IMG/VR virus record: IMGVR_UViG_2526164596_000007
Coordinates: 1-13,502 of that record
Reading direction: 5' to 3' (one strand)
Length of the DNA: 13,502 bases
Origin: a virus
Taxonomy: Duplodnaviria; Heunggongvirae; Uroviricota; Caudoviricetes
This document shows, one piece after another, positions 1-13,502 of the stretch. The notes below the pieces were generated by a model. The model was given only the letters and a program-made list of their open reading frames with translations. It did not search any database and was not told the DNA's origin. A program made the position numbers and the translations under genes. Numbering within the stretch: position 1 is the stretch's first letter; every line of letters starts with the position of its first letter.

Positions 1-577
1 AACAAGGGGAAATTTGCGCCTGGATCGCACGAATAAACGGTTCGAAGGAGCGATGCGTGATTTGTTGCTGAATAAAACTTTTATCCAGCATGACGCGGGT
101 GAAAAGACCATCAAAAACCGCTTTCATTGTGCTATTACCTGCTCCCAAATTGCCTAACACAAGGGGATACATTTGCGATAAGGATAAAAGATCGCGATTA
201 TCTTTTCCTTCATTGAGATGCGGGTAATTCTCATTAATCAACAGTTCAATAAACGGATATTTTAATAGTTCGCCTGCGTAATTATCCCTCTCTAATAATA
301 ATGTAGCCACTTGTGGCGTTAAATTAAGCCAGGCAAAGAGTTTATGTTGAATAAAAAAATGTTGGCATGATTTTAGTAATTCCAACTGCTCTGAAAATAA
401 TTGCCAATGTTGCTCCTCGGTAAGTTGCGCTATAACCCGACTCGTCGGGATACGCACCGTGCCATCTTCACTGGAGAAATGGGTAATTAACTCAACGCCG
501 ACAAGGAGTTGCTGGTTATCTCTTATCGGCAGGAAATAGCAATCAGAATGATAAAGATTCTCCAAAAAAATCTTCAT
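1..577 (-). CDS. ydiV: Anti-FlhDC factor YdiV (EAL-like), partial; 3' end lies beyond the window start
   Basis: Reverse-strand translation from the ATG at 577..575 reads MKIFLENLYHSDCYFLPIRDNQQLLVGVELIT..., matching my recollection of E. coli YdiV. The open frame runs to the window edge. Not in the ORF track because no stop codon falls inside the window. Confidence 0.8.
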   Translation of the reverse strand, partial: MKIFLENLYHSDCYFLPIRDNQQLLVGVELITHFSSEDGTVRIPTSRVIAQLTEEQHWQLFSEQLELLKSCQHFFIQHKLFAWLNLTPQVATLLLERDNYAGELLKYPFIELLINENYPHLNEGKDNRDLLSLSQMYPLVLGNLGAGNSTMKAVFDGLFTRVMLDKSFIQQQITHRSFEPFIRAIQAQISPC

Positions 578-783
578 GGTAACCGTCCCTCTCGAAGGAT
601 GTTTTTCAGTATCCGGCTAAAAGGGATGAGGCCATAAGACATAACAATTACAGAAGGAGTAACTTTCATTTGTTCCATGTTAACCACTTTTTCAGGGGTC
701 CTTTTTTTAGATTATCCTGATTATAAACGAATAATCCATTTACGGAATTTTTGTCTGCAAAATACTACTGTATTCAGGAGTAA

Positions 784-816
784 ATGGACGGCGATGTATC
801 ATCGCCGTCCATTTTT
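784..816. terminator. Perfect 13-bp inverted repeat (784-796 / 800-812, 3-nt loop) followed by T5 on the plus strand, just 3' of nlpC
   Basis: Seen in sequence: atggacggcgatg-tat-catcgccgtccat then ttttt. The A-run/T-run arrangement favours plus-strand termination, but it may act bidirectionally at the end of nlpC. Confidence 0.4.
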
Positions 817-823
817 CGACATA

Positions 824-1288
824 CTAGATTCGTCTCGCCTGCCAGAAATTTTTCTGCCAATAGACATTATCAAGTGAGGAACGCATCACTCCCTTGCTGG
901 TAGAGGCGTGGATAAATTGGTTGTTGGTATCGTAAATACCTACATGCAAACCATTTTGTCCGGACCCCGTTTTGAAAAAGACCAGGTCACCAGGCAGCAA
1001 CTCGTCTTTATCAATTTGCGTGCCGATAGAGGCTTGTTCTTTGGTTTCTCGGGGCAGCTGCAAATCGAAACGATCGCGCATCGTTACAACCACAAATCCC
1101 GAACAGTCCACACCGCGCCGCGTCATGCCACCATAACGATACGGCGTGCCATGCCAGCTTTGTAGCTGGTCGTTCAAACCGGCAATAACGGTAATCGAAT
1201 CAGAAAGTCTGGCATTTGGCGGCGGTGCTTTATGGTGGCTACACCCGGCCAGAAACAGTGCTGTGATCAAAATAAGGCAGAAACGCAT
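824..1288 (-). CDS. nlpC: NlpC/P60-family lipoprotein NlpC
   Basis: 154-aa ORF with a lipoprotein signal and lipobox (LFLAGC) and an NlpC/P60-like Cys motif (GVDCSGFV). Its position downstream of btuD matches the E. coli K-12 gene order. Confidence 0.9.
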   Translation of the reverse strand: MRFCLILITALFLAGCSHHKAPPPNARLSDSITVIAGLNDQLQSWHGTPYRYGGMTRRGVDCSGFVVVTMRDRFDLQLPRETKEQASIGTQIDKDELLPGDLVFFKTGSGQNGLHVGIYDTNNQFIHASTSKGVMRSSLDNVYWQKNFWQARRI

Positions 1289-1365
1289 TCCGTACGGTTC
1301 CTCTGTTTTTTATTCTTGCATTAATTTAGCGTCGTAATTACCCGATTTTCAAGATACTAATGAAA

Positions 1366-2115
1366 TCAGATGGTCGAAATCAGCATTCTGTGACCTTCGA
1401 TATCCAGACGGCGAAAATTCATCCCATAGGCCTGCGCCAGATTTGGCGGCGTGAGCACCTCTTCTCTGCGTCCACTGGCCAGCATTTTTCCACCTTTTAG
1501 CAACCACGCCCGATGCGCATGACGCAATGTGTGGTTGAGATCGTGACTGCTCATCACAATCGCCAGTCCTTGCTGACACAGAGCGCTCAGAATTTTGTCT
1601 AACGCACTTTGTTGCGCAACATCAAGACTGTTCATCGGCTCATCAAGAAGCAGCAATTGACCTGCGGGATTGGCTTGTGGTGTGATTTGCAGCACCACCG
1701 CAGCAAGACGTACGCGTTGCCATTCACCGCCGGAAAGTTGATTGGTGCTACGTCCGAGTTTGTCATCAAGAGCCAGCGCCCCTGCGACATCATTCAGTAG
1801 TTCGGTACGCGTTTTATCGTGCTGATGCAGTGTCAGGTAGTGCCAGACCGGCATTGCAAACGGCGGCGTCTGCTGTTGTGAAAGATAGGCGCGATGCAGC
1901 GCGAGTTTTGTTGCGGACCATGCTTCCAGGGGTTGCCCCGCGAACTGAATGCTTCCCTTACCGCTGGTCATTCCGGCCATTCGTGCAAGCAAGGTACTCT
2001 TACCCGCGCCATTCGGCCCCACCAGATGCAGGATCTCCCCAGCCCGAACCTCGCCAGAAAGTGGCCCCAGGCGGGTAGATTCCGCAACATCCTGTAACTG
2101 CATCACAATAGACAT
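1366..2115 (-). CDS. btuD: Vitamin B12 ABC transporter ATP-binding subunit BtuD
   Basis: 249 aa with Walker A (GPNGAGKST), ABC signature (LSGGEWQR) and Walker B (LLLLDEP). Sits in the expected btuCED context. Confidence 0.95.
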
Positions 2116-2666
2116 TATTTTGCCAACGCCAGTTTAATGCTTTCCATCACAATGGGGTCTTCCGGCGTCATATCCGGGGAAAAACGCTGGATGACCAATC
2201 CGTCCCTGCCAACTAAAAATTTCTCAAAATTCCATAAAATATCATCAGGGTACAGCGGTGCACGACCTTTGCTGACCATACGGGCATAGAATCCGCTCTC
2301 TTCCGGCGCGACTGCGGTCGGCGCTGCGGCAATCAATTTTTGATACAGCGGATGGCGTCCTTCGCCATTAACTTCAATCTTACTGAACATCGGGAACGTC
2401 ACCCCCCATGTGGTGGTACAGTAAGTTTTAATCTCTTCATCGCTGCCCGGTTCTTGTTCCAGAAACTGGTTGCACGGGAATCCCAGCACCACAAAACCTC
2501 GATCGGCCCAGGCTTTCTGAATATTCTCCAACTGCTCATATTGCGGCGTTAAGCCACACTTTGAGGCGACATTGACAATCAACAGCACATTACCGGCGTA
2601 CTTCTCCAGCGTGGTCACTTCACCGTCGATATCTTTCACTACGGTCGTCAGAATGGAATCTTGCAT
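2115..2666 (-). CDS. btuE: Glutathione peroxidase-family protein BtuE
   Basis: 183 aa with a GPx-like active-site region ([23 protein letters not shown]). Its stop shares base 2115 with the btuD start. Confidence 0.95.
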
Positions 2667-2728
2667 CGTTTCTCCTGGGTGTGGTCAGTAAAAATCTTAG
2701 CTTTTAATCATAGACCGTCTTTTTGCGG

Positions 2729-3709
2729 CTAACGTCCTGCTTTTAACAATAACCAGATAAACACCGGCGCACCCAACGTTGCGGTGACCACGCCAATAGG
2801 CAGCTCTGCGGCAGCTAATGCCAAGCGCGCTACAACATCGGCCAGCAGCAATGCGCTCGCCCCTGCCAGCGCGCAGCCGGGAAGTAATACGCGATGATCG
2901 GTTAAACCACACAACCGAAGAATATGTGGGATCACCAGACCAATAAAGCCGATAGCACCCGCCAGCGCCACACTGACGCCAACCATCCAGCCGGTCGCTG
3001 CCACCAGCACATTGCGCCAGAACCACAGGGGTAAACCCAGTTGCCGCGCCGAGATCTCGCCAAGTGCTAACATATTCATCGGCCTGGACTGACAACAGAT
3101 CCACAACAACACGGGGATCAATGCCAGCATCAGCCAGCTTTGCCGCCAGTCTACGCCGCCAAAACCGCCCATCATCCAGTACATCAGCTGACGTAAATCA
3201 ACAGAGGTGGAAAAGTAGATAGCCCACGTCATTAGTGCGCTACAGATAATCCCTAATGCAACGCCAGCCAGCAATAACCGACTGGTCGAAAGATGACGAC
3301 GGGCGAAACGTAAGAGTATTAAAGTGATGATAAGCGCGCCAGCAATCGCACACAGCCCTAGTGCCCAGTTTGGGAGTTGCCCTTGCCCAAGCAATACCGC
3401 GGCGATAAGCCCTACGCCTGCGCCGTTAGAGACGCCAAGTAGTCCAGGTTCTGCCAGAGGATTTTCAAACAACGCCTGCATTACTGCGCCGGATATAGCC
3501 AGCGCCGCACCAACCAGCAATACAGCCAGCGTACGTGGCAGGCGAATCTGCCAGACGAACAGTTCGCCACGAGGAGAAAACCAGTCACCTGGCGAGATCC
3601 ATTGTTCACCGGCGCAAAGGCTTAAGAGAAGCGCCAGCAGCATCAAAACTGACAGGCATAATAACCAGCGAATATTTTGTCGCTGTTGTTGGCGGGCAAG
3701 TGTCAGCAT
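2729..3709 (-). CDS. btuC: Vitamin B12 ABC transporter permease BtuC
   Basis: 326-aa, highly hydrophobic polytopic membrane protein of the FecCD/BtuC permease type. First gene of the btuCED cluster. Confidence 0.95.
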
Positions 3710-3766
3710 GGTATCCGTTCTGCTGAAGTGTCATGGCGTTGATTTTACGGTGACTCTTCGACAGTG

Positions 3767-3792
3767 AAAAGAAAAAAGGCCGCAGAGCGGCC
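3767..3792 (-). terminator. Rho-independent terminator for leftward (minus-strand) transcription
   Basis: Seen in sequence: GC stem ggccgc-aga-gcggcc (3778-3792) that on the minus strand is followed by a T-rich run (plus-strand A-run 3767-3777). It lies 69 bp upstream of the btuC start, at the junction with the phage-like DNA. Confidence 0.6.
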
Positions 3793-3807
3793 ATAAACAC
3801 AAACAAA

Positions 3808-3820
3808 AATCAATAAGTTA
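3808..3820 (+). promoter_or_regulatory. Candidate IHF-binding site in the putative attL region
   Basis: aatcaataagtta matches the IHF consensus WATCAANNNNTTR exactly and is preceded by an A-tract (3801-3809). It lies between the junction and the integrase-proximal direct repeats. Confidence 0.3.
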
Positions 3821-3881
3821 TATAATTATCAAAGGCTTACAGACACACAAAAACACAGCCAACCACAACAAATAACAGGGA

Positions 3882-3901
3882 TGTGGTCACTTTGTGGATC
3901 A
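3882..3901 (+). repeat. Direct repeats TGTGGTCA / TGTGGATCA spaced 11 bp apart; candidate integrase arm-type binding sites
   Basis: Seen in sequence at 3882-3889 and 3893-3901. They resemble the P2 Int arm-site consensus as I recall it (TGTGGACA direct repeats); that consensus is from memory. Confidence 0.3.
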
Positions 3902-4294
3902 TTCGCTCCCCTCTTTTTCCTTATTTCGTTGAACGCCAATTGCGACACACGTACTAAGCAAATCTTTACATTTCTCTACGTCTTCAGACTTACGCAATTT
4001 GATGCTTTTTACAGACTGCGGGCTACTGTCCGTAGCACGATACATCGTTATTTCAATATCATTTCGGTCTAAGAGTCCCATAATGGCTTTTGCAACCTCC
4101 ACACCCTTCTTCGCGAAATCAAAGAACAGAGCAAGTTTATATGGATTTTCGACGGAAAAAACTTCAATTTTGCTAAAACCAACATCGTGTCGAGAAAAAT
4201 ATTGCTCAACCTCATCTCGAAGTTCTGGATCGCAGACAATGTCTATTCTCCAGTACTGACCTAAATGCAAATCGCTATTAACTGTTTTTTCCAC
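3899..4294 (-). CDS. Hypothetical protein (131 aa from GTG at 4294; 138 aa if the TTG at 4315 is used), translationally coupled downstream of int
   Basis: A strong SD (AAGGAGG, 4306..4300 on the minus strand) overlaps the int stop codon, with an in-frame GTG 5 nt downstream. The ORF is AT-rich relative to the integrase and I recognise no family. Confidence 0.55.
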   Translation of the reverse strand: MEKTVNSDLHLGQYWRIDIVCDPELRDEVEQYFSRHDVGFSKIEVFSVENPYKLALFFDFAKKGVEVAKAIMGLLDRNDIEITMYRATDSSPQSVKSIKLRKSEDVEKCKDLLSTCVAIGVQRNKEKEGSE

Positions 4295-4304
4295 AACATC
4301 CTCC

Positions 4305-5279
4305 TTACCCAGCAATAGGATTAAATCTCACCGCATCCTGCAAGTAATCCGGCGCAAGATGGGCATAAATCATCGTTGTCTGAATCTTTGCGTGCCCCAG
4401 AATTTTCTGGAGCGTCAGAATATTGCCGCCGTTCATCATGAAATGACTGGCGAAGGTGTGGCGCAGCGCATGAACAGCCTGGCCGTCAGGAACATCAGGT
4501 GCGACCGTTTTGATGACATCGCGAACCAATGGATAATCCAGCGTCGGAAACACCAGTTTCCCGCCCCGTTTTTTGATCTTTTCAAACAGGCTTTCAGAAA
4601 TAGGAACGGTACGGTTTTTGCTGTTCTTCGTTTTTGAAAAAGTGATTCGACAATGAAGAACACGGCGCTGCTCCAGTACCGCTACCTCGCCCCATCGCGC
4701 CCCGGTCGACAGAAGGATTTCGACAGCCAGCCGTTCATCGGGATTTTCAGCCAGTGCATCCAGCAACTGAACACATTCAGACTTACTCAGATATCCCATT
4801 TCGCGCTCGTTAACCTTCATTCCTTTAAGGCCTTGAACGGGGTTATCGTTAAGAAAATGGCCGGATGAGATGAGTGCGGTAAACATCGCGCTTAACGCCC
4901 CAATCTCTCGATTTATGGTGCTGGGCTGTATCCCCTGCTCTATCCTGGACACACGTAGCTCGGTGAGCATCGTTGTATTAAGTTTATGCACGCACGGGTC
5001 ATCCATTGCCTCACTCAAGCGCAGCAATTTAAGGCGCGTGTTATGCCCTGACTTCATTAGCTGGCCGTGGTATTTCCACCACAAGTCAATAAGCACTGAC
5101 AGCGGACGGCGATCAATGGAGTTTCCTTTCCACTCATTGTTATGCTGTTGCGCCAGCACCCACCGCTCATATAAAACTGCATCCGATTTCGTTTTAAATT
5201 TTTTACGAATGCGTTTGCCTTTACGCCCCTCCGGGCGCATGTCAAGAAGATACCCTCCCGGAATTGATTTTATGCTCAT
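4305..5279 (-). CDS. int: P2-type tyrosine integrase
   Basis: 324 aa with tyrosine-recombinase box II (HALRHTFASH) and the catalytic Tyr region (TTMIYAHL). Strong end-to-end resemblance to P2 Int (337 aa) as recalled. Confidence 0.9.
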   Translation of the reverse strand: MSIKSIPGGYLLDMRPEGRKGKRIRKKFKTKSDAVLYERWVLAQQHNNEWKGNSIDRRPLSVLIDLWWKYHGQLMKSGHNTRLKLLRLSEAMDDPCVHKLNTTMLTELRVSRIEQGIQPSTINREIGALSAMFTALISSGHFLNDNPVQGLKGMKVNEREMGYLSKSECVQLLDALAENPDERLAVEILLSTGARWGEVAVLEQRRVLHCRITFSKTKNSKNRTVPISESLFEKIKKRGGKLVFPTLDYPLVRDVIKTVAPDVPDGQAVHALRHTFASHFMMNGGNILTLQKILGHAKIQTTMIYAHLAPDYLQDAVRFNPIAG

Positions 5280-5328
5280 TCGTGAAACCCCAGCGTTACA
5301 AGACCACCATGCCCCCAGCGCTCCATGA

Positions 5329-5637
5329 TTAGCCGGGCTGTGTGCCAGTCTTGCGGGGTTTTTGAGAAGGCGATGTGCTTTTTAGCCCATCAGGGGAGAG
5401 AGACGGACTGATCTGCCCAGCAGCCTCATTTGTTTTTCCCGTCATAAGCCAATTCATGTACTTAAAAAAGCGAGGGTGATTAACAATCTTGATAAGCACT
5501 TCGCCACCTATGTTTTCAATCCGCCCCGTTTCATAACGACGCAAAGTGCCGATAGGCACATCAATCAGGCCGCAAAATTCTTCGCGCGTTAAATCCTCTG
5601 ATTCACGAATCACTCTAATTTTTTCACCGATAAGCAT
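5329..5637 (-). CDS. P2 C-like immunity repressor (HTH)
   Basis: 102 aa (P2 C is 99 aa as recalled), with an HTH-like N-terminus (LTREEFCGLIDVPIGTLRRYETG). It sits upstream of int on the same strand and is divergent from the cox-like gene across a palindromic operator region. Confidence 0.7.
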   Translation of the reverse strand: MLIGEKIRVIRESEDLTREEFCGLIDVPIGTLRRYETGRIENIGGEVLIKIVNHPRFFKYMNWLMTGKTNEAAGQISPSLSPDGLKSTSPSQKPRKTGTQPG

Positions 5638-5649
5638 TGACAGTGTTCC

Positions 5650-5695
5650 TATAAGTACACTAAGCTTGCGCGCAAGGTGTACTTATAAGTACACC
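5650..5695. promoter_or_regulatory. Lysis/lysogeny switch operator: three half-sites of tataagtacac (direct, inverted, direct), including a perfect 20-bp palindrome
   Basis: Seen in sequence: tataagtacac at 5650-5660, its reverse complement at 5677-5687, and a third copy at 5685-5695. The stretch 5676-5695 (ggtgtacttataagtacacc) is a perfect palindrome and cttgcgcgcaag (5664-5675) is a second one. A TTGACA -35-like hexamer at 5637-5642 lies just upstream. Confidence 0.6.
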
Positions 5696-5733
5696 AAGTC
5701 ACAAACAACCACAGATAGCGCAGGTTATCACAC

Positions 5734-6012
5734 ATGGCAAAAGTCCTGAACACACACGAACAGGCAGACTTTGAGCGTTTAGCAGCGTTCTATCCCTACC
5801 GCGATGAGCATGGGTTACCAGTACTTGAAGAAAGCCTGAAAGATTACGCAAAGCGTACCAACCAAGCTGTTAACACAGTGAAAAGACAGGCTGACAGAGG
5901 TTCAATTCCCATCAACCAGGATGAAAAGAACTCAAGACGCACAGTAAATCTCTTCGCTCTTTTCCTGAAAACAATCAGGAGCGCAGAAAAATACGTGCAG
6001 ATGACAAAATAA
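5734..6012 (+). CDS. Cox/Apl-like small DNA-binding protein (putative excisionase and switch regulator)
   Basis: 92 aa (P2 Cox is 91 aa as recalled). It is the first gene of the rightward operon, divergent from the repressor, and has an HTH-like segment (YAKRTNQAVNTVKRQADRGSIP). Confidence 0.5.
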   Translation: MAKVLNTHEQADFERLAAFYPYRDEHGLPVLEESLKDYAKRTNQAVNTVKRQADRGSIPINQDEKNSRRTVNLFALFLKTIRSAEKYVQMTK

Positions 6013-6026
6013 CGAGGTGTCATTTT

Positions 6027-6365
6027 ATGCTGAAGCAACGCCGTAATTTTCGTACCGGAACAGAACGCCACGCTAACCGTTTCACTACCAGTGCATCACG
6101 CAGCAACATCCGCTACAGCCTGAGTGATACACACGCAACGCCGGATGGCTACCCAGTAAAACAAATCGGCGAGCACGCCTGGCTGATTGAGAAAGCTGGA
6201 ATCGTGATCCACAAATGCCCACGCAATCCGTTTACCGGAAACCGCATTTTTGCATTGAGCTGTGGCGACAATCAGTTCGGGCAGGATTTCACATTATACG
6301 AAGCACTTCGCACGGTTGATCGTCTGCTTCGCGGACAAAGTTTTATTAAACAGGTTGATTTATAA
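6027..6365 (+). CDS. Hypothetical early-region protein (112 aa)
   Basis: SD GAGGTG precedes the ATG; the ORF is packed tightly behind the cox-like gene in the same orientation. Confidence 0.55.
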   Translation: MLKQRRNFRTGTERHANRFTTSASRSNIRYSLSDTHATPDGYPVKQIGEHAWLIEKAGIVIHKCPRNPFTGNRIFALSCGDNQFGQDFTLYEALRTVDRLLRGQSFIKQVDL

Positions 6366-6375
6366 CAGGTGCTTT

Positions 6376-6663
6376 ATGACCAAAGAGTATGCACAAGGTG
6401 TATTTATCCGTTTTATTGATTTTCGCGGTGAACTGTTATTACGTGCATCCGCTATTGACGGAGTGACTCCGGCGGGTAAAAACGGAGCCGACGAAGCCAC
6501 TTACGTTTATCTGAACGGCACGCGACTACTTGTGGAGCTTCCGTACCAGACCGTTCGCGAAGCCATTAACGAAGCTGAAAAAGCGCGCCAGGCTAATAGC
6601 GATGAACCCTATATCGAAATTATTTGTATGGATTCAGAAGCTGAAATTAAGAAAGCAGATTAA
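6376..6663 (+). CDS. Hypothetical early-region protein (95 aa)
   Basis: SD AGGTG at 6366-6370 sits 5 nt before the ATG at 6376. The longer track ORF starting at 6262 overlaps the previous gene and is less likely. Confidence 0.55.
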   Translation: MTKEYAQGVFIRFIDFRGELLLRASAIDGVTPAGKNGADEATYVYLNGTRLLVELPYQTVREAINEAEKARQANSDEPYIEIICMDSEAEIKKAD

Positions 6664-6674
6664 AGGGCGTTGTG

Positions 6675-6917
6675 ATGGGCAAAGAATATAAAACTCTCAT
6701 TAACAAAGCACTTGAGCGTTTTTATTTTCGCTTAAGCGCATCAGGCGCTCATGCTGAACGTGCAGCCCGTGACTCATTGACCAGGGCAATCCGGAGTTTG
6801 TATGACGTCGCTTTTTACGCTGATGATCTGGATGCACTTAACGAACTTTCCGAGCTGATCTGTGCCGCAGAATGCGGGGAACATATTGAACCGTATAAGC
6901 TGGGGAATATCGCATGA
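6675..6917 (+). CDS. Hypothetical early-region protein (80 aa)
   Basis: SD AAGGG at 6663-6667; start is the ATG at 6675 (a GTG at 6672 is also possible). Confidence 0.5.
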   Translation: MGKEYKTLINKALERFYFRLSASGAHAERAARDSLTRAIRSLYDVAFYADDLDALNELSELICAAECGEHIEPYKLGNIA

Positions 6918-7027
6918 GTATATTTATCTCATGGCTTGTTCTGATTATTTCGGTGGCCTGCGCCATTGGGATTATGCGAATTATTCATTCAGTAAAAAAG
7001 ATTGAACGCTTTTTCACTGACGAATAA
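6914..7027 (+). CDS. Small predicted membrane peptide (37 aa, one hydrophobic helix)
   Basis: Translation MSIFISWLVLIISVACAIGIMRIIHSVKKIERFFTDE. Its ATG overlaps the upstream stop (ATGA). Below the ORF-track size cutoff; AT-rich. Confidence 0.4.
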   Translation: MSIFISWLVLIISVACAIGIMRIIHSVKKIERFFTDE

Positions 7028-7116
7028 CAGCACAAACAAAACACCAGATTAAATAAGAAAACGTGAAAACAATCCGCATTCGCGGAGGCATCCACATATA
7101 TAAACACGAGGTTAGC

Positions 7117-7380
7117 ATGCTCAGGACAAATCAAAAAATACTGAAGGATGCGTATTTTGATAGGGGGCAGGATCTCGCAAAGCTTTGTGCCGCGCTAGAA
7201 GAGATACATCAGTATTTCGCTGATATTGAAGATGATATAGCTAACAAAGGTACCAGTATTTCATCAGCGAACAGAGCACATTTTATGGGCTTTAATATTT
7301 TTACAGCAATAAGAACATTAAAAGAACAAAAAGAAGAAATAGAAAAGCTCAAACACGGACATAAAGCTAAGAGAGTGTAA
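7117..7380 (+). CDS. Hypothetical protein (87 aa), AT-rich
   Basis: SD GAGGT at 7107-7111 sits 5 nt before the ATG at 7117 (the track ORF starts at a GTG at 7063). Visibly AT-rich and lysine/glutamate-rich. Confidence 0.5.
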   Translation: MLRTNQKILKDAYFDRGQDLAKLCAALEEIHQYFADIEDDIANKGTSISSANRAHFMGFNIFTAIRTLKEQKEEIEKLKHGHKAKRV

Positions 7381-7583
7381 TGGCAATTAAGCATTTTCCC
7401 GTCGTTCGTTTCACCTCCAGAGGGCGCGAATACGAGGTCGACGAACGCCTGATTACCACTATCGACAAACATCGTTCGGAAAAGGATGCACACCACATCT
7501 ACCTCACTGACGGCACTTACTTCTGCGCCACTAATGTGGCGCGGGTAAACCTTATCCGACAGGTACAGGAGCCACGCAGATGA
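7380..7583 (+). CDS. Hypothetical protein (67 aa)
   Basis: Start overlaps the upstream stop (TAATG), indicating translational coupling. Confidence 0.5.
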   Translation: MAIKHFPVVRFTSRGREYEVDERLITTIDKHRSEKDAHHIYLTDGTYFCATNVARVNLIRQVQEPRR

Positions 7584-7846
7584 CCATTCTGGACTACATC
7601 GCTACTCATCCGGGGTGTAGCGGCGGAGAGATCGCCGCAGCACTGAATACCCCAACCACAGCCATTAATGCTGAGTTACGCCGACTTTGGCGCGGCGGCT
7701 TAGTCATCAGAACAAACCGCAGCACAGGTGGTCGCGCTCGCAAAACAGGAGGCCAGGCTTCTTACCACGTAAACCCGATGCCGTTCGGGTGTAGCAATCC
7801 ACTTACTCACATGTTTAACCAGCTACTGAAGGAAGCCAGAGCATGA
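7580..7846 (+). CDS. Hypothetical protein (88 aa), possible winged-helix DNA-binding protein
   Basis: ATGA overlap with the upstream gene. The segment ILDYIATHPGCSGGEIAAALNTPTTAINAELRRLWRGGLV resembles a wHTH domain; this is a by-eye judgement. Confidence 0.5.
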   Translation: MTILDYIATHPGCSGGEIAAALNTPTTAINAELRRLWRGGLVIRTNRSTGGRARKTGGQASYHVNPMPFGCSNPLTHMFNQLLKEARA

Positions 7847-8142
7847 GCACCATCAACCACCAGAAGCTACGCGAACTGGCATTTGCCCTGCAACGAATGG
7901 CAACGCCTCAAAAATTACTGGCATTTCGCGCAATGCTCTCGCCGTCTGCTGTGCTGGCACTGCTGGATGAGCTGGAGCACGCCAGAACCACGGCTCCTGC
8001 CATTCGCCTGACGCTCCATCATGAAATCGCTGATTTCTGCGCGACGTTGGAGTCGCCGGGCGAACCGGAAACGCCGGAAGCAATACAGCAAGAGCTGCTG
8101 CAACGCATTGACAAGGTTTTTGATTTTTTTCTGAACCAGTAA
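7843..8142 (+). CDS. Hypothetical protein (99 aa)
   Basis: ATGA overlap with the upstream gene; last gene before the non-coding island. Confidence 0.55.
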   Translation: MSTINHQKLRELAFALQRMATPQKLLAFRAMLSPSAVLALLDELEHARTTAPAIRLTLHHEIADFCATLESPGEPETPEAIQQELLQRIDKVFDFFLNQ

Positions 8143-8464
8143 GAAACCAGAACATGCACACACAAAAAAACCGCTTGCCATGCCGCAATCAGTCAGGTTA
8201 CATTTCCACTGCACCTCATAAAACGGGTGCCGGGTTTCGCAGCCTGCTGACTACACAAGCGCACAACCGCGCCAGCGGTTTTTTTGTGCGTACTGTATTG
8301 CCACGTTTTTTTCGCGTCAGAATTATGGCGGGGCGTACGGGGCCGACTTCGGTCGGGCCGGGTTCTTGTGTAGCCGGTACTGCGAACCTCGTACGTCTCG
8401 CCACCCACAGTTTCGCAGCTCTGGATGGTGAGTTTTCACAACTTACTACACAAGGGGCCACACC
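8143..8464 (+). other. GC-rich, hairpin-rich non-coding island (candidate structured RNA or regulatory element)
   Basis: No plausible ORF. Contains a 15-bp inverted repeat (8161-8175 / 8274-8288) flanking about 100 bp, a C(UUCG)G tetraloop hairpin at 8343-8356, and a short hairpin plus T7 run at 8267-8285. Confidence 0.35.
8267..8285 (+). terminator. Putative weak intrinsic terminator (ccgc-gcca-gcgg followed by T7)
   Basis: Seen in sequence. The stem is short (4-6 bp), so the call is tentative. Confidence 0.35.
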
Positions 8465-8695
8465 ATGGCAAACCGCAAACAGCACCGCGCTATCGCGGAG
8501 CGTCGTCACATCCAGACTGAAATCAACCGCAGACTTTTCCGCGCATCACGCGTCGCGCAAATCATGCACATCAATATGCTGCATGAGCGCAGCCACGCAC
8601 TATCAAACATCTATTCCGCCGCTGTTTTCAGCTATCTGGCGGATGATCTGCACGAGCTTCAACAGCTCATCCAGCAGCAAAACAAACTCCATTAA
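8465..8695 (+). CDS. Hypothetical protein (76 aa)
   Basis: SD AGGGG at 8452-8456 precedes the ATG; charged, helical-looking sequence with no cysteines, so not Ogr-like. Confidence 0.5.
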   Translation: MANRKQHRAIAERRHIQTEINRRLFRASRVAQIMHINMLHERSHALSNIYSAAVFSYLADDLHELQQLIQQQNKLH

Positions 8696-8767
8696 TTCCT
8701 GTTCCGGGCCCTTCCTGCACCTTGCGGCGGGAGGCCTTCGCACATCTGTAACCAGAGGATTGCCGCA

Positions 8768-9133
8768 ATGATTCTCGCCAACGACTTTCTTGAATACCTG
8801 CTCAACACAGAGCGTGATCTTGCCGTTCGCGTGCGTGAACGTTATGACATGTACCTGAAATCCCTGCCTGTACCGCAGCTCGCTGACGGAAAGATTGTTA
8901 TTGATGGTCGCTACATGATTGACAGCCACGAGGGAAATTACAGGCTTTACCGCATTGAAGGTGGCACCCCGTCCGTTATTGGCATTTACCAGCGCCCATC
9001 CTCTGCAATCGTCGATGTGATTGCCGACAGCATCCGCATCACACATCGCCATGCCGACACAGAAGACACCGTGCTGGAAATTCAGCGGCTGGCTACAGTC
9101 TGCCGCGACACCCTGAATGGCATGACGAAGTAA
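8768..9133 (+). CDS. Hypothetical protein (121 aa)
   Basis: SD GAGGA at 8753-8757; ends 7 bp before the replicase start. Confidence 0.55.
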   Translation: MILANDFLEYLLNTERDLAVRVRERYDMYLKSLPVPQLADGKIVIDGRYMIDSHEGNYRLYRIEGGTPSVIGIYQRPSSAIVDVIADSIRITHRHADTEDTVLEIQRLATVCRDTLNGMTK

Positions 9134-9139
9134 ATCACT

Positions 9140-12013
9140 ATGACGGCAGAGTACATCAGGGACTGGCAACAACCGCGCCACGCAGTGGGGCGTGAAGGAA
9201 CGGGGATCCCCGCTCCTGAATCCGCGCTTTCCTCCTGGCTGGATGCCTACCGGGTAGAGAACGAGCGCCGCCAGGAAATGGCTGATGCGGCGTTCTCCGC
9301 AACGCCGCTGGGCAACCTGATTAATAAAAGCCTGGACGCACAGGAAAAACAGGACAAAACCATCACACTGGCAGGAGACGCCAGAAAACAGGCACGCGGC
9401 GCGGTGGATGAAGCCATGGCCTCGCTGCGCCTGCTGCCGTCCTATCTGCGCGATCCGCTTATTCGCCACCTCTCCTTCCTGCGCAAAAAACAGGAAGCCG
9501 ATCGCCGGAAAGGCAAAAAGAGCTGGCAGGCGGAACGCTATGCACGCGGAACCCTGCGCAAAATATTCGAACGTCTGGATCGCACTGACAGACACTGGCT
9601 GACACCGGGTTACCGCTCCCTTGCTGGACGCGAACGCCTGGACGATTTGCTTTACCTGCCGCAGCTCAACAAACACCAGATACAGACGCTGGCCACCATG
9701 ACAGCGGCGATGTTCAGCAGCACCTTCGAAAAACTCTGCGATGGCTTTGGCGCGACCGATGGCGAACTGACCATGGATGTAACGCTGAAGGCGTATCAGA
9801 TGCTGGCCCGCATGGCGTTACACCTGCACATCATGCCTCCACATTATGACGCACTGACAACAGATAAAGACCGGAGGAACGAACCGGACACGGAGCTGCT
9901 GCCGGGCGCAATCCTTCGCCTGACCTGTGCGGAATGGTGGAAACGCAAACTGTGGCTGTTACGTTGCGAGTGGAGAGAAGAACAACTCCGCGCCGCCTGT
10001 CTGGTTTCCAGAAAAACATCACCCTATCTGAGCCAGGACGCGTTAAGCGAGTTTCGCGCACAGCGCGAGAAAACACGCGATTTCCTGAAAAGTTTCATGC
10101 TGGAAAACGAAGACGGGTTCACGATTGATCTCGAGACAGTGTATTACGCGGGAGTAAGTAACCCGGTTCACCGTAAGGCAGAAATGATGGCCACCATGAA
10201 GGGGCTGGAACTTCTGGCCGAAGCCCGTGGCGACAAAGCGGTGTTTCTGACTGTCACCTGCCCGTCAAAATACCACGCCACAACAGAGAACGGTCATCCG
10301 AATCCCAAATGGAACGGGGCCACCATGCGCGACTCCAGCGATTACCTGGTTAACACGTTTTTTGCGGCGGTCCGCAAAAAACTGAACCGCGACGGCCTGC
10401 GCTGGTATGGCATCCGCACGGTGGAGCCTCACCATGACGGCACCGTGCACTGGCACATGATGGTCTTTGCTCATCCGGAAGAAATCGACAGCATCGTGGC
10501 CATCACCCGCGATATTGCCATTCAGGAAGACCGCCACGAGCTGGGCAATGATATTACTCCGCGCTTTAAGGCGGAGTATGTCGACGGCTCAAAAGGCACA
10601 CCAACCAGCTACATCGCCACCTACATCGGAAAGAACCTGGACAGCCGCGCCGTGGATGGCATCGACCCGAAAACGGGCAAGCCACGCGTTGACCACGAAA
10701 CCGGAAAATCAATGGCCGAGAGTGTGGAACGCGCCATCGGCTGGGCGCGCCTTCACCGGGTCCGCCAGTTCCAGTTCTTTGGCATCCCCTCCCGTCAGGT
10801 ATGGCGTGAACTCCGCCGCCTTGCCAGCCAGATGGCACGCAACCCGGAAGGCCCACAACGGCTGAAGGATGATGCAATGGATGCGGTACTCGCTGCCGCT
10901 GATGCCGGGTGTTTTGCCACCTACATTGAGAAACAGGGCGGCGTACTTGTTCCACGCAAAGACTACCTGATTCGCACCGCCTACGACCTCGCAGATGAGC
11001 TGAACGATTACGGCGAACAGAGCGTACAGATTTACGGGATCTGGTCACCACTCATCGGGGAATCCTCCCGTGTGTGCACGCACCCGGATAACTGGAAGCT
11101 GGTAAGACGTAAACCGGAAGCGGAAGACAGCACCCGCGAAAATGGTTTTGACCTTCAGGGCGGCCCTGCCGCCCCTTGGACTCGTGGCAATAACTGTCCC
11201 CGTGTACAGGAAACGGACAACAACGGGACAGAACAGCCGGAAGAACGGCCAGCACCGTGGCCGCAGCTCCCTGACGGCGTTGAAGTGAACGAATGGATGC
11301 GCTCACTGAAACGGCACGAACGCCGGGCGCTGATGCGTTCGCTTCGTGACAAACAGGCAAAAAACAGCAGTGATGAAATGCAGAGCTGGACACAGAGCCG
11401 CAAACAGCAGCGGCCTTTGCCTGATAACCACGAATTACTCGCTAAAGAATGGCGGGAGTCTGCTGAAGCTCTCGGCCTGCATATCGGTGAACAGCAGATG
11501 CAGCACCTGTTACGGGGCGGCAGTCTGTACGTTGACGGCAGCATCATTGCACCGCAGGGATTTGAAATTGTACGCAAACCGGATACCCGACCGGACAGCC
11601 GGATCACGCAGCTCTGGCAGCGCCTGAGCCGTAACCACGGCGTAAGCAGCACGGAGATCCGCCATAACCCGGTCGCCAGCTATCTGGCACAGCTGGGGGC
11701 ATCAGACCACGAAGCCGCCGCACGCCTGGCATCCACACTTCAGCAGGACCAGAACACCATGAAAACACCCGTTACCGTGCTTTCTGACATGCTGCGCGCC
11801 ATCCGCGACGCAGAGCACGCACAGAGAATCAGTGAAACCACTGAACGCGCCCGCCGCAAAGCAGATCTGCTGCGGGGTAGCCTGACCAGTGGAAACAAAA
11901 AACAGACAGAAACGGGATTCACAAATCCCGTAAATGAGCAAAAACGCGCCGCGATATATGAAGCGCGCACAAAACAGGCAAAAACGGGATTTCAGAATCC
12001 CGTAAACGATTAA
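9140..12013 (+). CDS. HUH rolling-circle replication initiator, P2 gpA family, with an extended C-terminus
   Basis: 957 aa. HUH motif HWH at residues 437-439 (VHWHMMVF) and a paired-tyrosine motif YIATYIGK (Y491/Y495) analogous to phiX174 gpA / P2 A. Positioned as the last early gene, as in P2. Confidence 0.85.
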   Translation: MTAEYIRDWQQPRHAVGREGTGIPAPESALSSWLDAYRVENERRQEMADAAFSATPLGNLINKSLDAQEKQDKTITLAGDARKQARGAVDEAMASLRLLPSYLRDPLIRHLSFLRKKQEADRRKGKKSWQAERYARGTLRKIFERLDRTDRHWLTPGYRSLAGRERLDDLLYLPQLNKHQIQTLATMTAAMFSSTFEKLCDGFGATDGELTMDVTLKAYQMLARMALHLHIMPPHYDALTTDKDRRNEPDTELLPGAILRLTCAEWWKRKLWLLRCEWREEQLRAACLVSRKTSPYLSQDALSEFRAQREKTRDFLKSFMLENEDGFTIDLETVYYAGVSNPVHRKAEMMATMKGLELLAEARGDKAVFLTVTCPSKYHATTENGHPNPKWNGATMRDSSDYLVNTFFAAVRKKLNRDGLRWYGIRTVEPHHDGTVHWHMMVFAHPEEIDSIVAITRDIAIQEDRHELGNDITPRFKAEYVDGSKGTPTSYIATYIGKNLDSRAVDGIDPKTGKPRVDHETGKSMAESVERAIGWARLHRVRQFQFFGIPSRQVWRELRRLASQMARNPEGPQRLKDDAMDAVLAAADAGCFATYIEKQGGVLVPRKDYLIRTAYDLADELNDYGEQSVQIYGIWSPLIGESSRVCTHPDNWKLVRRKPEAEDSTRENGFDLQGGPAAPWTRGNNCPRVQETDNNGTEQPEERPAPWPQLPDGVEVNEWMRSLKRHERRALMRSLRDKQAKNSSDEMQSWTQSRKQQRPLPDNHELLAKEWRESAEALGLHIGEQQMQHLLRGGSLYVDGSIIAPQGFEIVRKPDTRPDSRITQLWQRLSRNHGVSSTEIRHNPVASYLAQLGASDHEAAARLASTLQQDQNTMKTPVTVLSDMLRAIRDAEHAQRISETTERARRKADLLRGSLTSGNKKQTETGFTNPVNEQKRAAIYEARTKQAKTGFQNPVND
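11912..12003. repeat. Two copies of the palindrome acgggatt-N4-aatcccgt, 72 bp apart, inside the 3' end of the replicase ORF and just upstream of parM; candidate parC-like centromere and ParR operator
   Basis: Seen in sequence at 11912-11931 and 11984-12003. A possible parM promoter (TTCAGA at 11990-11995, ATTAAT at 12013-12018) overlaps the second copy. Confidence 0.45.
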
Positions 12014-12037
12014 TTAATCAACATAAGGAAAAGCGAC

Positions 12038-12998
12038 ATGAAAATTTGTATCGATGACGGCTCCACCAACATCAAGCTGGCATGGACTGAGAACGGCGAA
12101 CGCCGCAACGCCATCAGCCCGAACAGCTTCAAGTCGGAATGGTCTGCGCCGTTCGGTGACACGCAGCCCGCGAACTACATGCTTGATGGCGTGCGCTATG
12201 GTTTTGATCCGGTCAGCGATCGCTTTGTCCAGACGACCGACACGCAATACCAGTACAGCGATGTGAATGTCATTGCCATTCATCACGCGCTGGTCAAATC
12301 AGGCATCACACCACAGGAAGTGGATGTGGTTGTCACCCTGCCACTGAGCGAATATTTCGACACAAACGCACAGCCGGACATGGCCAACATCAACCGCAAA
12401 AAAGCAAACGTCGTGCGCCCGGTGGCGTACCAGAACGGAAAAAGCATTCACTATCCGTAACGTACGGGTTATGCCTGAATCCATTCCGGCTGGCTTTAAG
12501 GCACTGGCTGACATGAGTCCGTTTGAATCCCTGCTGATTGTGGATTTAGGCGGAACCACGCTGGATGTGGCAAAGGTTCAGGGACAACTGGCAGGTATCA
12601 GCCAGGTGTTTTGCGATCCACACGTAGGCGTTTCCCTGATGGCCGATGCCGTACTGTCGGTGATGGCCACTAACGGTATGCGTACCAGTCACCACATCGC
12701 CAATACCATTATCGAACATCGCCATGATGAAGCCTGGCTGCGCCAGCACATCCACAATGACGCGCATTACGCCAGCCTGATGGCGGTTATTCGTGAAAAG
12801 GAAGAAACACTGAAACAACGCGTGATCCGCGCGCTGGCGGGTTTTTCGGGTTACGGGCGGGTGATGGTTGTCGGTGGCGGGGCGGAGATTGTGGCACCCG
12901 CTATCCGCGAAGCCTGCGGAGTTAATGCGACTTTCATCGCGGACGGGGTGCCACAGTTTGCTCTGGTTAATGGGCTGTACGCAATGGACAAGGAGTAA
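12038..12998 (+). pseudogene. parM: ParM/StbA-type actin-like segregation ATPase, interrupted by a +1 frameshift in an A5 run
   Basis: N-terminus MKICIDDGSTNIKLAW matches R1 ParM (MLVFIDDGSTNIKLQW) as recalled. Phosphate-2 (LLIVDLGGTTLD) and adenosine (VMVVGGGAEI) motifs are present. The frame shifts from the 12038 frame to the 12471 frame at aaaaa (12439-12443); removing one A restores a continuous ORF of about 319 aa. Confidence 0.8.
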
Positions 12999-13002
12999 AC
13001 CA

Positions 13003-13314
13003 ATGACGACACCAACCAGACGGATAAGTTTCTATCTGAAGCCCGCCGCCGTCAAGAACGAAGGCGAAGCATGCGCCTGGCTGGACAGCCTTACACCAGA
13101 AGCCCGCAAAAGTGGTCAACGTGTGGCTTTTCTGGCCGGGCTGGCACTACTGAAAATGAATCCGGCAGAGGCTTACCGACTGGCTGCATGGGCTGATTAT
13201 GAGGCGTTATCAGTGACACAAACCAGGACAGAACGCCCCGCGTCACAGCCAGTATCAGCCGCACAGATAACCAGTCAGATGGCCGGAAATATCCGGGCGT
13301 TATTTCCCGAATAA
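13003..13314 (+). CDS. parR: ParR-like centromere-binding protein (103 aa)
   Basis: SD AGGAG at 12991-12995 sits 7 nt before the ATG. The N-terminal segment (RRISFYLKP...LDSL...AFLAGLAL) and C-terminal IRALFPE resemble R1 ParR as recalled. Lies immediately downstream of parM, as in parMRC loci. Confidence 0.65.
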   Translation: MTTPTRRISFYLKPAAVKNEGEACAWLDSLTPEARKSGQRVAFLAGLALLKMNPAEAYRLAAWADYEALSVTQTRTERPASQPVSAAQITSQMAGNIRALFPE

Positions 13315-13377
13315 CACAACATCAGGGCGCATCCGCCCGGATGACTTTAACCCGGGAGCATAAACAAGGGGGACACA

Positions 13378-13502
13378 ATGCAACACATTGACAGAGAAAA
13401 AGCGCAGCGACTGATTGAGCGGATGGAAGCGCTGGCGAAAGAAGAAAATGTCAACATCCAAAAAATAGCTGAATGTGGCCAGATAGTTCTTCGTCGTGAA
13501 AA
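13378..13502 (+). CDS. Hypothetical protein, 5' portion only (runs off the window end)
   Basis: SD-like aaggggga upstream of the ATG at 13378; the frame stays open to the window end (MQHIDREKAQRLIERMEALAKEENVNIQKIAECGQIVLRRE...). Confidence 0.4.
   Translation, partial: MQHIDREKAQRLIERMEALAKEENVNIQKIAECGQIVLRRE

Follow-up and report, generated by a model that had tools for sequence, protein, structure and literature searches.

Positions 8143–8464 of a 13,502-nt stretch of a tailed-phage genome (IMG/VR record IMGVR_UViG_2526164596_000007, positions 1–13,502; hereafter the window) form an island within the early operon of a P2-family prophage. This island is very probably an IsrK–C4 antisense immunity module of the class represented by seqA–CI of phage P4 and immI of phage P1, carried by a P88-like (Xuanwuvirus) prophage. 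Modules of this kind are already known from P1 immI, the P4 immunity region and the Gifsy-1 IsrK locus; what is new is the occurrence in Xuanwuvirus-type P2-like phages, for which we found no description of an IsrK–C4 module in the searchable literature. The version in the window has two variant traits, a long open reading frame (ORF) that is out of phase with the first downstream gene and a repeat arm upstream of the module. Its anatomy, family membership, structures and antisense complementarity are established at the level of sequence comparison, whereas the detailed regulatory steps, which we derive by analogy with the known systems, are only rather probable, and both a translational bypass and an antiterminator function of the repeat arm are put forward tentatively.

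Two RNAs and their target sites

Both halves of the island match curated Rfam models above the gathering score. The first is an IsrK-like leader or small RNA (65.2 bits against a gathering score of 50), and the second is a C4/CI-type antisense RNA (83.2 bits against 45, E = 1.6e-15); both matches from the scan of the window span the full length of the model (positions 1–77 and 1–87, respectively; Table 1). An earlier note on this DNA, made from the letters alone, had suggested a structured RNA (a small RNA, processing substrate or antisense regulator), and this is borne out in the form of a terminated IsrK-like leader, a C4/CI-type RNA and its target sites. The tandem of isrK followed by C4 was present in 17/17 related loci that we fetched, at a distance of 21–35 nt; these loci include P88-type phages, a Citrobacter phage, Stx phages, mEp460 and Salmonella phages.

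Table 1. Features of the module and its surroundings, in window coordinates
Feature	Positions	Strand	Remarks
Ash/Eta-like ORF, 205 aa	8154–8771	+	begins 5′ of the internal promoter; crosses isrK, C4 and a2/b2
Repeat left arm	8158–8178	+	perfect core 8161–8175; A7 run 8164–8170
PisrK, internal sigma-70-like promoter (predicted)	8175–8204	+	−35 TTGCCA 8175–8180, 18-nt spacer, −10 TACATT 8199–8204
IsrK-like leader/small RNA (equivalent of P4 seqA leader)	8211–8285	+	Rfam RF01394
isrK hairpin 1	8211–8230	+
isrK hairpin 2	8231–8246	+
a1 target	8234–8243	+	core TTCGCAG 8236–8242; lies in the loop of isrK hairpin 2 and is complementary to C4 a′
b1 target CTACACAAG	8251–8259	+	complementary to C4 b′ loop
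isrK Rho-independent terminator (predicted)	8265–8280 plus U7 ending at 8285	+	from terminator scan
Repeat right arm	8271–8291	+	terminator loop and 3′ strand, U-tract, GTGCGT
C4/CI-type antisense RNA	8321–8408	+	Rfam RF01695 (clan CL00128)
C4 closing stem	8326–8342 / 8387–8403	+	contains both CGTACG boxes
C4 first hairpin (UUCG)	8343–8356	+
C4 second hairpin	8357–8378	+	12-nt b′ loop 8362–8373, core CTTGTGTAG 8365–8373
C4 a′ segment, single-stranded	8379–8386	+	core CUGCGAA 8380–8386
Alternative hairpin	8397–8432	+	8397–8403 (3′ strand of C4 closing stem) pairs with 8426–8432; a2 in loop
a2 target	8410–8419	+	core TTCGCAG 8412–8418
b2 target CTACACAAG	8446–8454	+	overlaps Shine–Dalgarno AAGGGG 8452–8457
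Epsilon-like derepression protein gene, 76 aa	8465–8695	+	predicted first regulated gene; Pfam PF25738
ORF121 (121 aa)	8768–9133	+	downstream cargo
Replication gene A	9140–12013	+	Phage_GPA, 439 bits; phrog_3237
ParM/StbA halves	12038–12460 and 12471–12998		split between two frames

The covariance comparison that the note had proposed showed pairing conserved through compensatory changes in relatives. In an alignment of 16 sequences including P1 and P4, 15 of the 27 pairs of the C4 consensus structure carry compensatory double changes. An alternative hairpin, to which the closing stem of C4 contributes its 3′ strand, shows compensatory changes at 6 of its 7 pairs, likewise across 16 sequences with P1 and P4 among them; the isrK consensus structure has 13 pairs, 4 of them with compensatory changes. 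The alternative hairpin and the folded C4 are mutually exclusive, in keeping with the alternative-structure logic described for Gifsy-1. In P1 and P4, C4/CI is a stable RNA of ∼77 nt that RNase P cuts from a precursor.

The leader is preceded by a predicted internal promoter, PisrK, with 9/12 matches to the consensus, a −10 element 7 nt 5′ of isrK position 1 and a predicted start at ∼8211. In each of the 17 fetched loci a −35/−10 pair keeps this distance from isrK position 1, although its sequence varies (e.g. TTGATT..TACACT, TTGACT..TATATT and TTGACG..TAAAGT). A second promoter-like match at 8298–8326 (TTGCCA-17-AATTAT) was rejected as chance: its −35 is conserved neither in P88, which reads TCGCCA, nor in the lambdoid loci, whose spacers are shorter by 11 nt, and its start would fall within the C4 stem. 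The AATTAT of this match is the conserved 5′ flank of C4.

All the sequence motifs listed in the earlier note are present where it placed them, namely a perfect 15-bp inverted repeat (CACAAAAAAACCGCT, 8161–8175 against 8274–8288), the UUCG hairpin CCGACTTCGGTCGG (8343–8356), two CGTACG boxes (8334–8339 and 8390–8395), and two duplicated words, GTTTCGCAGC (at 8234 and 8410) and CTACACAAG (at 8251 and 8446), the latter with its reverse complement CTTGTGTAG at 8365. The way in which they had been grouped needs revision: the CGTACG boxes face each other as opposite strands of the C4 closing stem, the isrK terminator and its U-tract make up the right arm of the repeat, and the duplicated words are antisense target sites. 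The description of the island as GC-rich holds only marginally (54.7% vs 51.0% for the window).

The target sites form two pairs, a1/b1 and a2/b2, on either side of C4, and the 7-mer cores of a and b have no further copy in the 13.5-kb window. A search of genome contigs with the 76-aa protein encoded directly 3′ of the module gave just 3 loci, and the diversity was drawn instead from a DNA-pattern scan of viral contigs, which added more than 100 to the fetched loci; together the loci hold 39 distinct a′/b′ combinations (31 b′ and 15 a′). We counted a loop as matched when it had a perfect complement of ≥ 7 nt at the conserved position. By this count b′ matched the upstream site in 31/39 cognate and 13/1364 non-cognate comparisons and the downstream site in 33/39 and 24/1364, and a′ matched the upstream site in 35/39 and 6/1242 and the downstream site in 39/39 and 29/1242. 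This three-way covariation is strong comparative evidence both that C4 acts by antisense pairing and that diversifying selection acts on the pairing sequences, as it would on an immunity determinant. The motifs are not due to chance, given the above-threshold Rfam matches of both halves of the island and the covariation of the repeated words with the C4 loops in relatives.

The a and b specificities reassort among the 39 variants. Between the window (8211–8464) and P88 (locus L001, 3051–3304), a1, b1, a′, b′, a2 and b2 all differ, and the protein encoded directly downstream, annotated in P88 as ‘derepression protein’, is 100% identical. Identical cargo next to different a and b elements, together with the reassortment, indicates that specificity elements are exchanged independently of cargo.

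Known modules, downstream cargo and host phage

The closest parallel is satellite phage P4, whose immunity region (PLE – seqA leader – CI RNA – seqC, nested in eta/kil and followed by epsilon and the alpha replication operon) contains the same two Rfam families in the same order, followed by epsilon. Like the window, P4 has an internal constitutive-type promoter within a longer open frame that crosses the RNAs (an open stretch of 654 nt in P4), a Phage_ASH domain over the module, an epsilon-family derepression gene directly 3′ and replication genes further on, and the gene order of the window (leader, CI, epsilon, ORFs, replication gene) is closer to the P4 left operon than to P1 immI. Unlike the satellite, the element in the window is a complete P2-like phage that brings a C repressor of its own as well as tail and head genes. 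Its replication gene is a P2-type A instead of the P4 alpha primase, the isrK–C4 spacer is 35 nt compared to 107 nt in P4, and its long frame crosses the epsilon-like gene to an ATGA junction, whereas that of P4 stops at the epsilon start with an 8-nt overlap. PMC3632133 names an ‘IsrK-C4 immunity system’ for P4 and lambdoid prophages and equates seqA with IsrK and CI with C4. For P4, PMC10111431 describes a constitutive promoter inside eta, premature termination caused by the antisense RNA, and prevention of termination when eta is translated from an upstream promoter.

In P1 and P7, immI has the order Op51/P51a,b – a1 b1 – c4 – a2 b2 – icd – ant, and loop/target specificity underlies the heteroimmunity between the two phages in a summary of their C4 systems (PMC12197685). 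P1 shares with the window the match to the C4 family, a target pair on either side of the RNA, a first ORF of just 73–76 aa and loop/target sequences that would set specificity; ATG 8465 lies 11 nt past b2, a spacing identical to that between b2 and icd in the annotated P1 record. The leaders differ, that of P1 matching Rfam c4-a1b1 (RF03163) and that of the window isrK. The cargo also differs: P1 immI continues with icd and ant1/ant2, whereas the window has neither an icd nor an Ant1/2 homologue (the 76-aa protein shows no similarity to P1 Icd) and carries instead the epsilon-like gene and A.

Gifsy-1 (isrK–orf45–anrP) and the lambdoid and Stx copies resemble the window in having the isrK + C4 tandem before an anti-repressor-type gene, and one Stx2 phage record already annotates both RNAs. 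At Gifsy-1, a short terminated IsrK, a read-through isoform and a processed downstream RNA have been reported (PMC4825925). The lambdoid cargo is a Rha/Ant/Bro-type anti-repressor in place of the epsilon-like protein, and in lambdoid loci the ATG that follows b2 lies in phase with the long frame, so that the genes are nested like eta and kil of P4, whereas the long frame of P2-type loci and the epsilon-like gene are out of phase.

The product of the epsilon-like gene scores 31.8 bits with the Pfam model of the derepression protein family, whose gathering score is 27, and is 29% identical to P4 epsilon, the annotated helper derepression protein (BLASTP, E = 2e-8). In a tblastn search of the phage collection, close relatives of this gene were found in Xuanwuvirus records only. 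Homology between ORF121 and P4 ORF151 was not significant, and the fold of the intergenic stretch 8690–8775 was not structured beyond chance (z = 0.43).

The prophage carries an integrase (4305–5279, − strand) and a P2 C-type repressor (5329–5637, − strand; 40% identity to P2 C), and gene A is the last gene of its early operon on the + strand. The nearest phages are P88 and other members of Xuanwuvirus (Peduoviridae), and neither P2 nor 186 has any Rfam match in its early region. The 700 bp around the island were found in 1397 of 5426 complete Escherichia coli genomes, about a quarter; among the matches listed, the annotation of the island reads hypothetical proteins or ‘Ash family protein’ and lacks an RNA gene, and one GenBank record labels the region ‘similar to ash family protein’.

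In Xuanwuvirus-type loci (L001, L002, L005–L007 and IMG/VR loci), homology begins abruptly at the repeat left arm, at 8158–8161 (exactly at 8161 between the window and P88), and the genes further upstream vary between relatives, with at least nine differing accessory genes or contexts. The abrupt start and the variety of upstream contexts mark 8158–8161 as a recombination boundary of the early operon. At the other end of the operon, 3′ of gene A, the window contains a homologue of the actin-like plasmid-segregation proteins ParM/StbA (12038–12998) in two ORFs in different frames, either a pseudogene broken by a frameshift or the result of a sequencing error; it is unusual for a P2-like prophage to have a partition gene. 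The fetched loci also gave two unrelated Rfam matches, sRNA-Xcc1 3′ of a Rha-family gene in phage TL-2011c (L014, 2523–2606) and an ALIL pseudoknot in an Stx2a phage (L004, 5066–5182).

The upstream repeat arm and the long open frame

Beyond its perfect core, the inverted repeat extends to 21 nt at 90% complementarity (8158–8178 / 8271–8291). The left arm lies 5′ of the predicted start of PisrK and would therefore be carried only by transcripts from the early promoter. The minimum free energy fold of 8143–8292 (−54.6 kcal/mol) contains the long-range helix between the arms with a pair probability of 0.996, compared to −44.9 kcal/mol when the terminator is enforced, and an RNA of 8211–8292 forms the terminator. 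In folds of stepwise increasing length, the left arm stays 70–90% unpaired until 8275–8280 emerges and then captures this segment. On these thermodynamic grounds, the left arm could be a promoter-selective antiterminator. It is confined to Xuanwuvirus-type loci and absent from the lambdoid and P4-type loci examined; within the former, the arms are near-invariant, and the variants (A5 in L027 and L114; L050) show no clean compensation between left arm and terminator. A terminator complement upstream in lambdoid loci was considered and dropped, being a 9-nt match in three related loci that does not track the loop change in mEp460.

It is also plausible, if somewhat less likely than not, that the left arm serves just as a UP element of the promoter or, as an A-rich and CA-rich tract immediately after ATG 8154, to enhance translation initiation, and that its complementarity to the terminator has no RNA function. 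Its A7 run occupies −47 to −41 of PisrK, as a UP element would, and at the same time codons 4–6 of the long ORF, and the A5 variants retain the U7 of the terminator, so the pairing is not strictly maintained. Against this, eight further bases beside the A7:U7 core are perfectly complementary, with a chance probability of ∼1.5e-5, and the equilibrium folds strongly favor the long-range helix. Codons 4–6 also contain, in the zero frame, a heptamer, A_AAA_AAC (8163–8171), that has the form of a −1 frameshift or transcriptional-slippage site; a −1 shift here would enter a frame with early stops.

The earlier note had found no credible ORF in the island and had called it non-coding, which is doubtful in view of the frame 8154–8771. 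Its product matches Pfam Phage_ASH (PF10554), marginally (26.7 bits against a cutoff of 26), over aa 16–108, which correspond to nt 8199–8477, i.e. the translated isrK + C4 module. A Phage_ASH domain also overlies the module, with higher scores, in the open frame of P4 (82 bits) and in gp41 of mEp460 (57 bits), and its extent coincides with isrK + C4 in each case (∼8329–8704 on the − strand in P4 locus L019 and ∼1489–1780 in mEp460 locus L011). The Phage_ASH ‘domain’ may largely reflect RNA-level conservation read in one conserved frame. Similarity between the long ORF and the P4 frame was not significant in BLASTP.

Among 56 unique collinear P2-type loci, the frame is free of stops through the module in 55 and through the epsilon overlap in 48, and the other two frames average 2.6 and 1.75 stops. 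An upstream in-frame ATG is always present: at least nine unrelated upstream contexts each supply one a few bases 5′ of CACAAAAAAACCGC, and some lambdoid versions have GGAGG 7 nt 5′ of the ATG. At its 3′ end the frame traverses the epsilon-like gene out of frame and stops at TGA 8769–8771, overlapping the ORF121 start codon (8768–8770) as ATGA, an arrangement found in most loci and resembling that of P4 eta. In some relatives (IMG/VR loci L043, L079, L072 and L075) the epsilon-like gene has a premature stop or has lost 54 nt in frame, and the overlapping long frame is open to the ATGA junction. The P1 module has stops in all three frames, so an open frame is not inherent to the RNA.

The island is thus probably not untranslated, judging from the conservation of the 8154 frame in relatives. 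We infer that the frame is selected for translation through the module and not for its protein, a parallel with P4. According to the annotation of the 186 record, translation of A requires translation to the end of the preceding gene, which fits a coupling chain from the long ORF through ORF121 to A.

Proposed regulation and alternative explanations

By analogy with P1, P4 and Gifsy-1, we propose the following sequence of events. In a lysogen, the internal promoter would be constitutive and most transcripts would end at the isrK terminator, with read-through transcripts being processed into stable C4 RNA, presumably with the involvement of RNase P. The a′ and b′ segments of C4 would pair with a2 and b2 and block translation of the epsilon-like gene, and this block would extend to ORF121 and A through polarity or lost translational coupling; that the latter two genes are controlled by the module is suggested by their position and the P4 precedent. 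Pairing of C4 with a1 and b1 may serve as feedback or as a decoy, and the variable a/b sequences would define immunity specificity against superinfecting relatives. More tentatively, transcripts from the early promoter would carry ATG 8154 and be translated through the terminator, C4 and a2/b2 to the ATGA junction with ORF121, and this translation, as has been reported for P4 eta, might free lytic transcription from the RNA immunity, perhaps aided by the upstream repeat arm as an RNA antiterminator. Taken as a whole, a P4-style cassette placed before gene A, with lytic escape by the out-of-phase frame and by a promoter-selective antiterminator, devices undescribed in the family, is less likely than not. 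In this reading the product of the frame would be irrelevant, its ribosomes would pass to ORF121 at the ATGA junction, and the repeat arm would sequester the terminator's 3′ strand.

Several observations weigh against the immunity module as proposed. The transcript ends, the processing of C4, the repression of the epsilon-like gene and the control of gene A are all projected from the known systems. Duplex energies compared with shuffled loops are unremarkable for three of the four loop–target pairs, with only b′:b2 standing out (−20.4 kcal/mol, equaled by 3/500 shuffled loops), so the antisense case rests on the comparative data. The long frame has a stop just 5′ of C4 in one locus (L040). Its epsilon-overlapping half lacks a codon-phase signal of protein-level selection, and is therefore not conserved as protein; the same test gave a weak third-position excess for the epsilon-like gene (67 vs 42 and 40). 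An allele-based test gave no significant stop avoidance in this half (7.9 stops expected, 4 observed, P = 0.11), its power being lost to the four nonsense alleles of the epsilon-like gene itself. Synonymous resampling of the epsilon-like gene gave a probability of 0.009–0.36, depending on the variant, that the frame is open, which makes its openness only moderately unlikely given the epsilon protein sequence. Finally, at Gifsy-1 the short IsrK was reported to activate downstream translation and not to be part of a repressor system (PMC4825925), leaving the sign of regulation by the leader uncertain.

The Gifsy-1 report leads to a different, improbable but substantive account of the locus, in which IsrK-type activation dominates: the a1/b1 region would pair in cis with the C4-like segment, a short IsrK-like RNA would open this silent read-through fold in trans and switch on a downstream anti-repressor, and there would be no free C4 repressor. 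This model has been demonstrated experimentally at the homologous Gifsy-1 locus (PMC4825925), and both the complementarity of a1/b1 to C4 and the conserved alternative hairpin exist in the window. Yet the same report describes a stable processed RNA 3′ of IsrK and likens it to CI. Moreover, a2 and b2 covary with the loops as tightly as a1 and b1 do, and b2 lies over the ribosome-binding site, neither of which a mechanism acting only in cis needs. P1 and P4 genetics also make C4/CI a trans-acting repressor, according to the annotation of the P1 record and to PMC3632133. The activation and repression models are probably two faces of one system.

We consider it very improbable that the region is simply an Ash-family protein gene (8154–8771) with the RNA-like features as by-products. 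The Phage_ASH match, the conserved open frame and a GenBank annotation as ‘ash family protein’ speak for such a gene, but the near-threshold match covers exactly the RNA module, and variation within the module is spread evenly over the three codon phases and follows RNA logic (compensatory stems and three-way covariation). P1 has the same RNAs with no open frame, and the C-terminal half of the ORF, which lacks a codon-phase signal, overlaps out of frame a gene that belongs to a Pfam family of its own. The earlier note had set a gene across the region against an RNA function; such an ORF does exist, yet RNA and ORF coexist.

The least credible alternative, which takes up the earlier note's suggestion of an embedded miniature element, is that the 15-bp inverted repeat marks a MITE-like miniature mobile element, a DNA cruciform or a recombination site inserted in the operon: the repeat is perfect over 15 bp and coincides with the start of homology to P88, but its arms enclose just the promoter and the isrK leader, a terminator accounts for its right arm, neither the repeat words nor the a/b 7-mers recur elsewhere in the window (the whole 8158–8291 unit and a target-site duplication were not searched for), and the position of the module is fixed in every Xuanwuvirus-type locus, with lambdoid and P4 versions lacking the left arm.

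Identification of the island as an IsrK–C4 module explains a recurrent ‘gap’ in the annotation of P88-type prophages, and the co-extension of Phage_ASH with two RNA genes matters to annotation pipelines. The module predicts a second, RNA-based layer of immunity in a genus of the P2 family and numerous natural specificity types (39 here), on which superinfection exclusion, as well as cross-induction between prophages that share a host, could depend. If the P4-style cassette with its two escape devices were real, the presence of a satellite's derepression gene in a helper-type phage would suggest derepression of heteroimmune P2-like neighbours.

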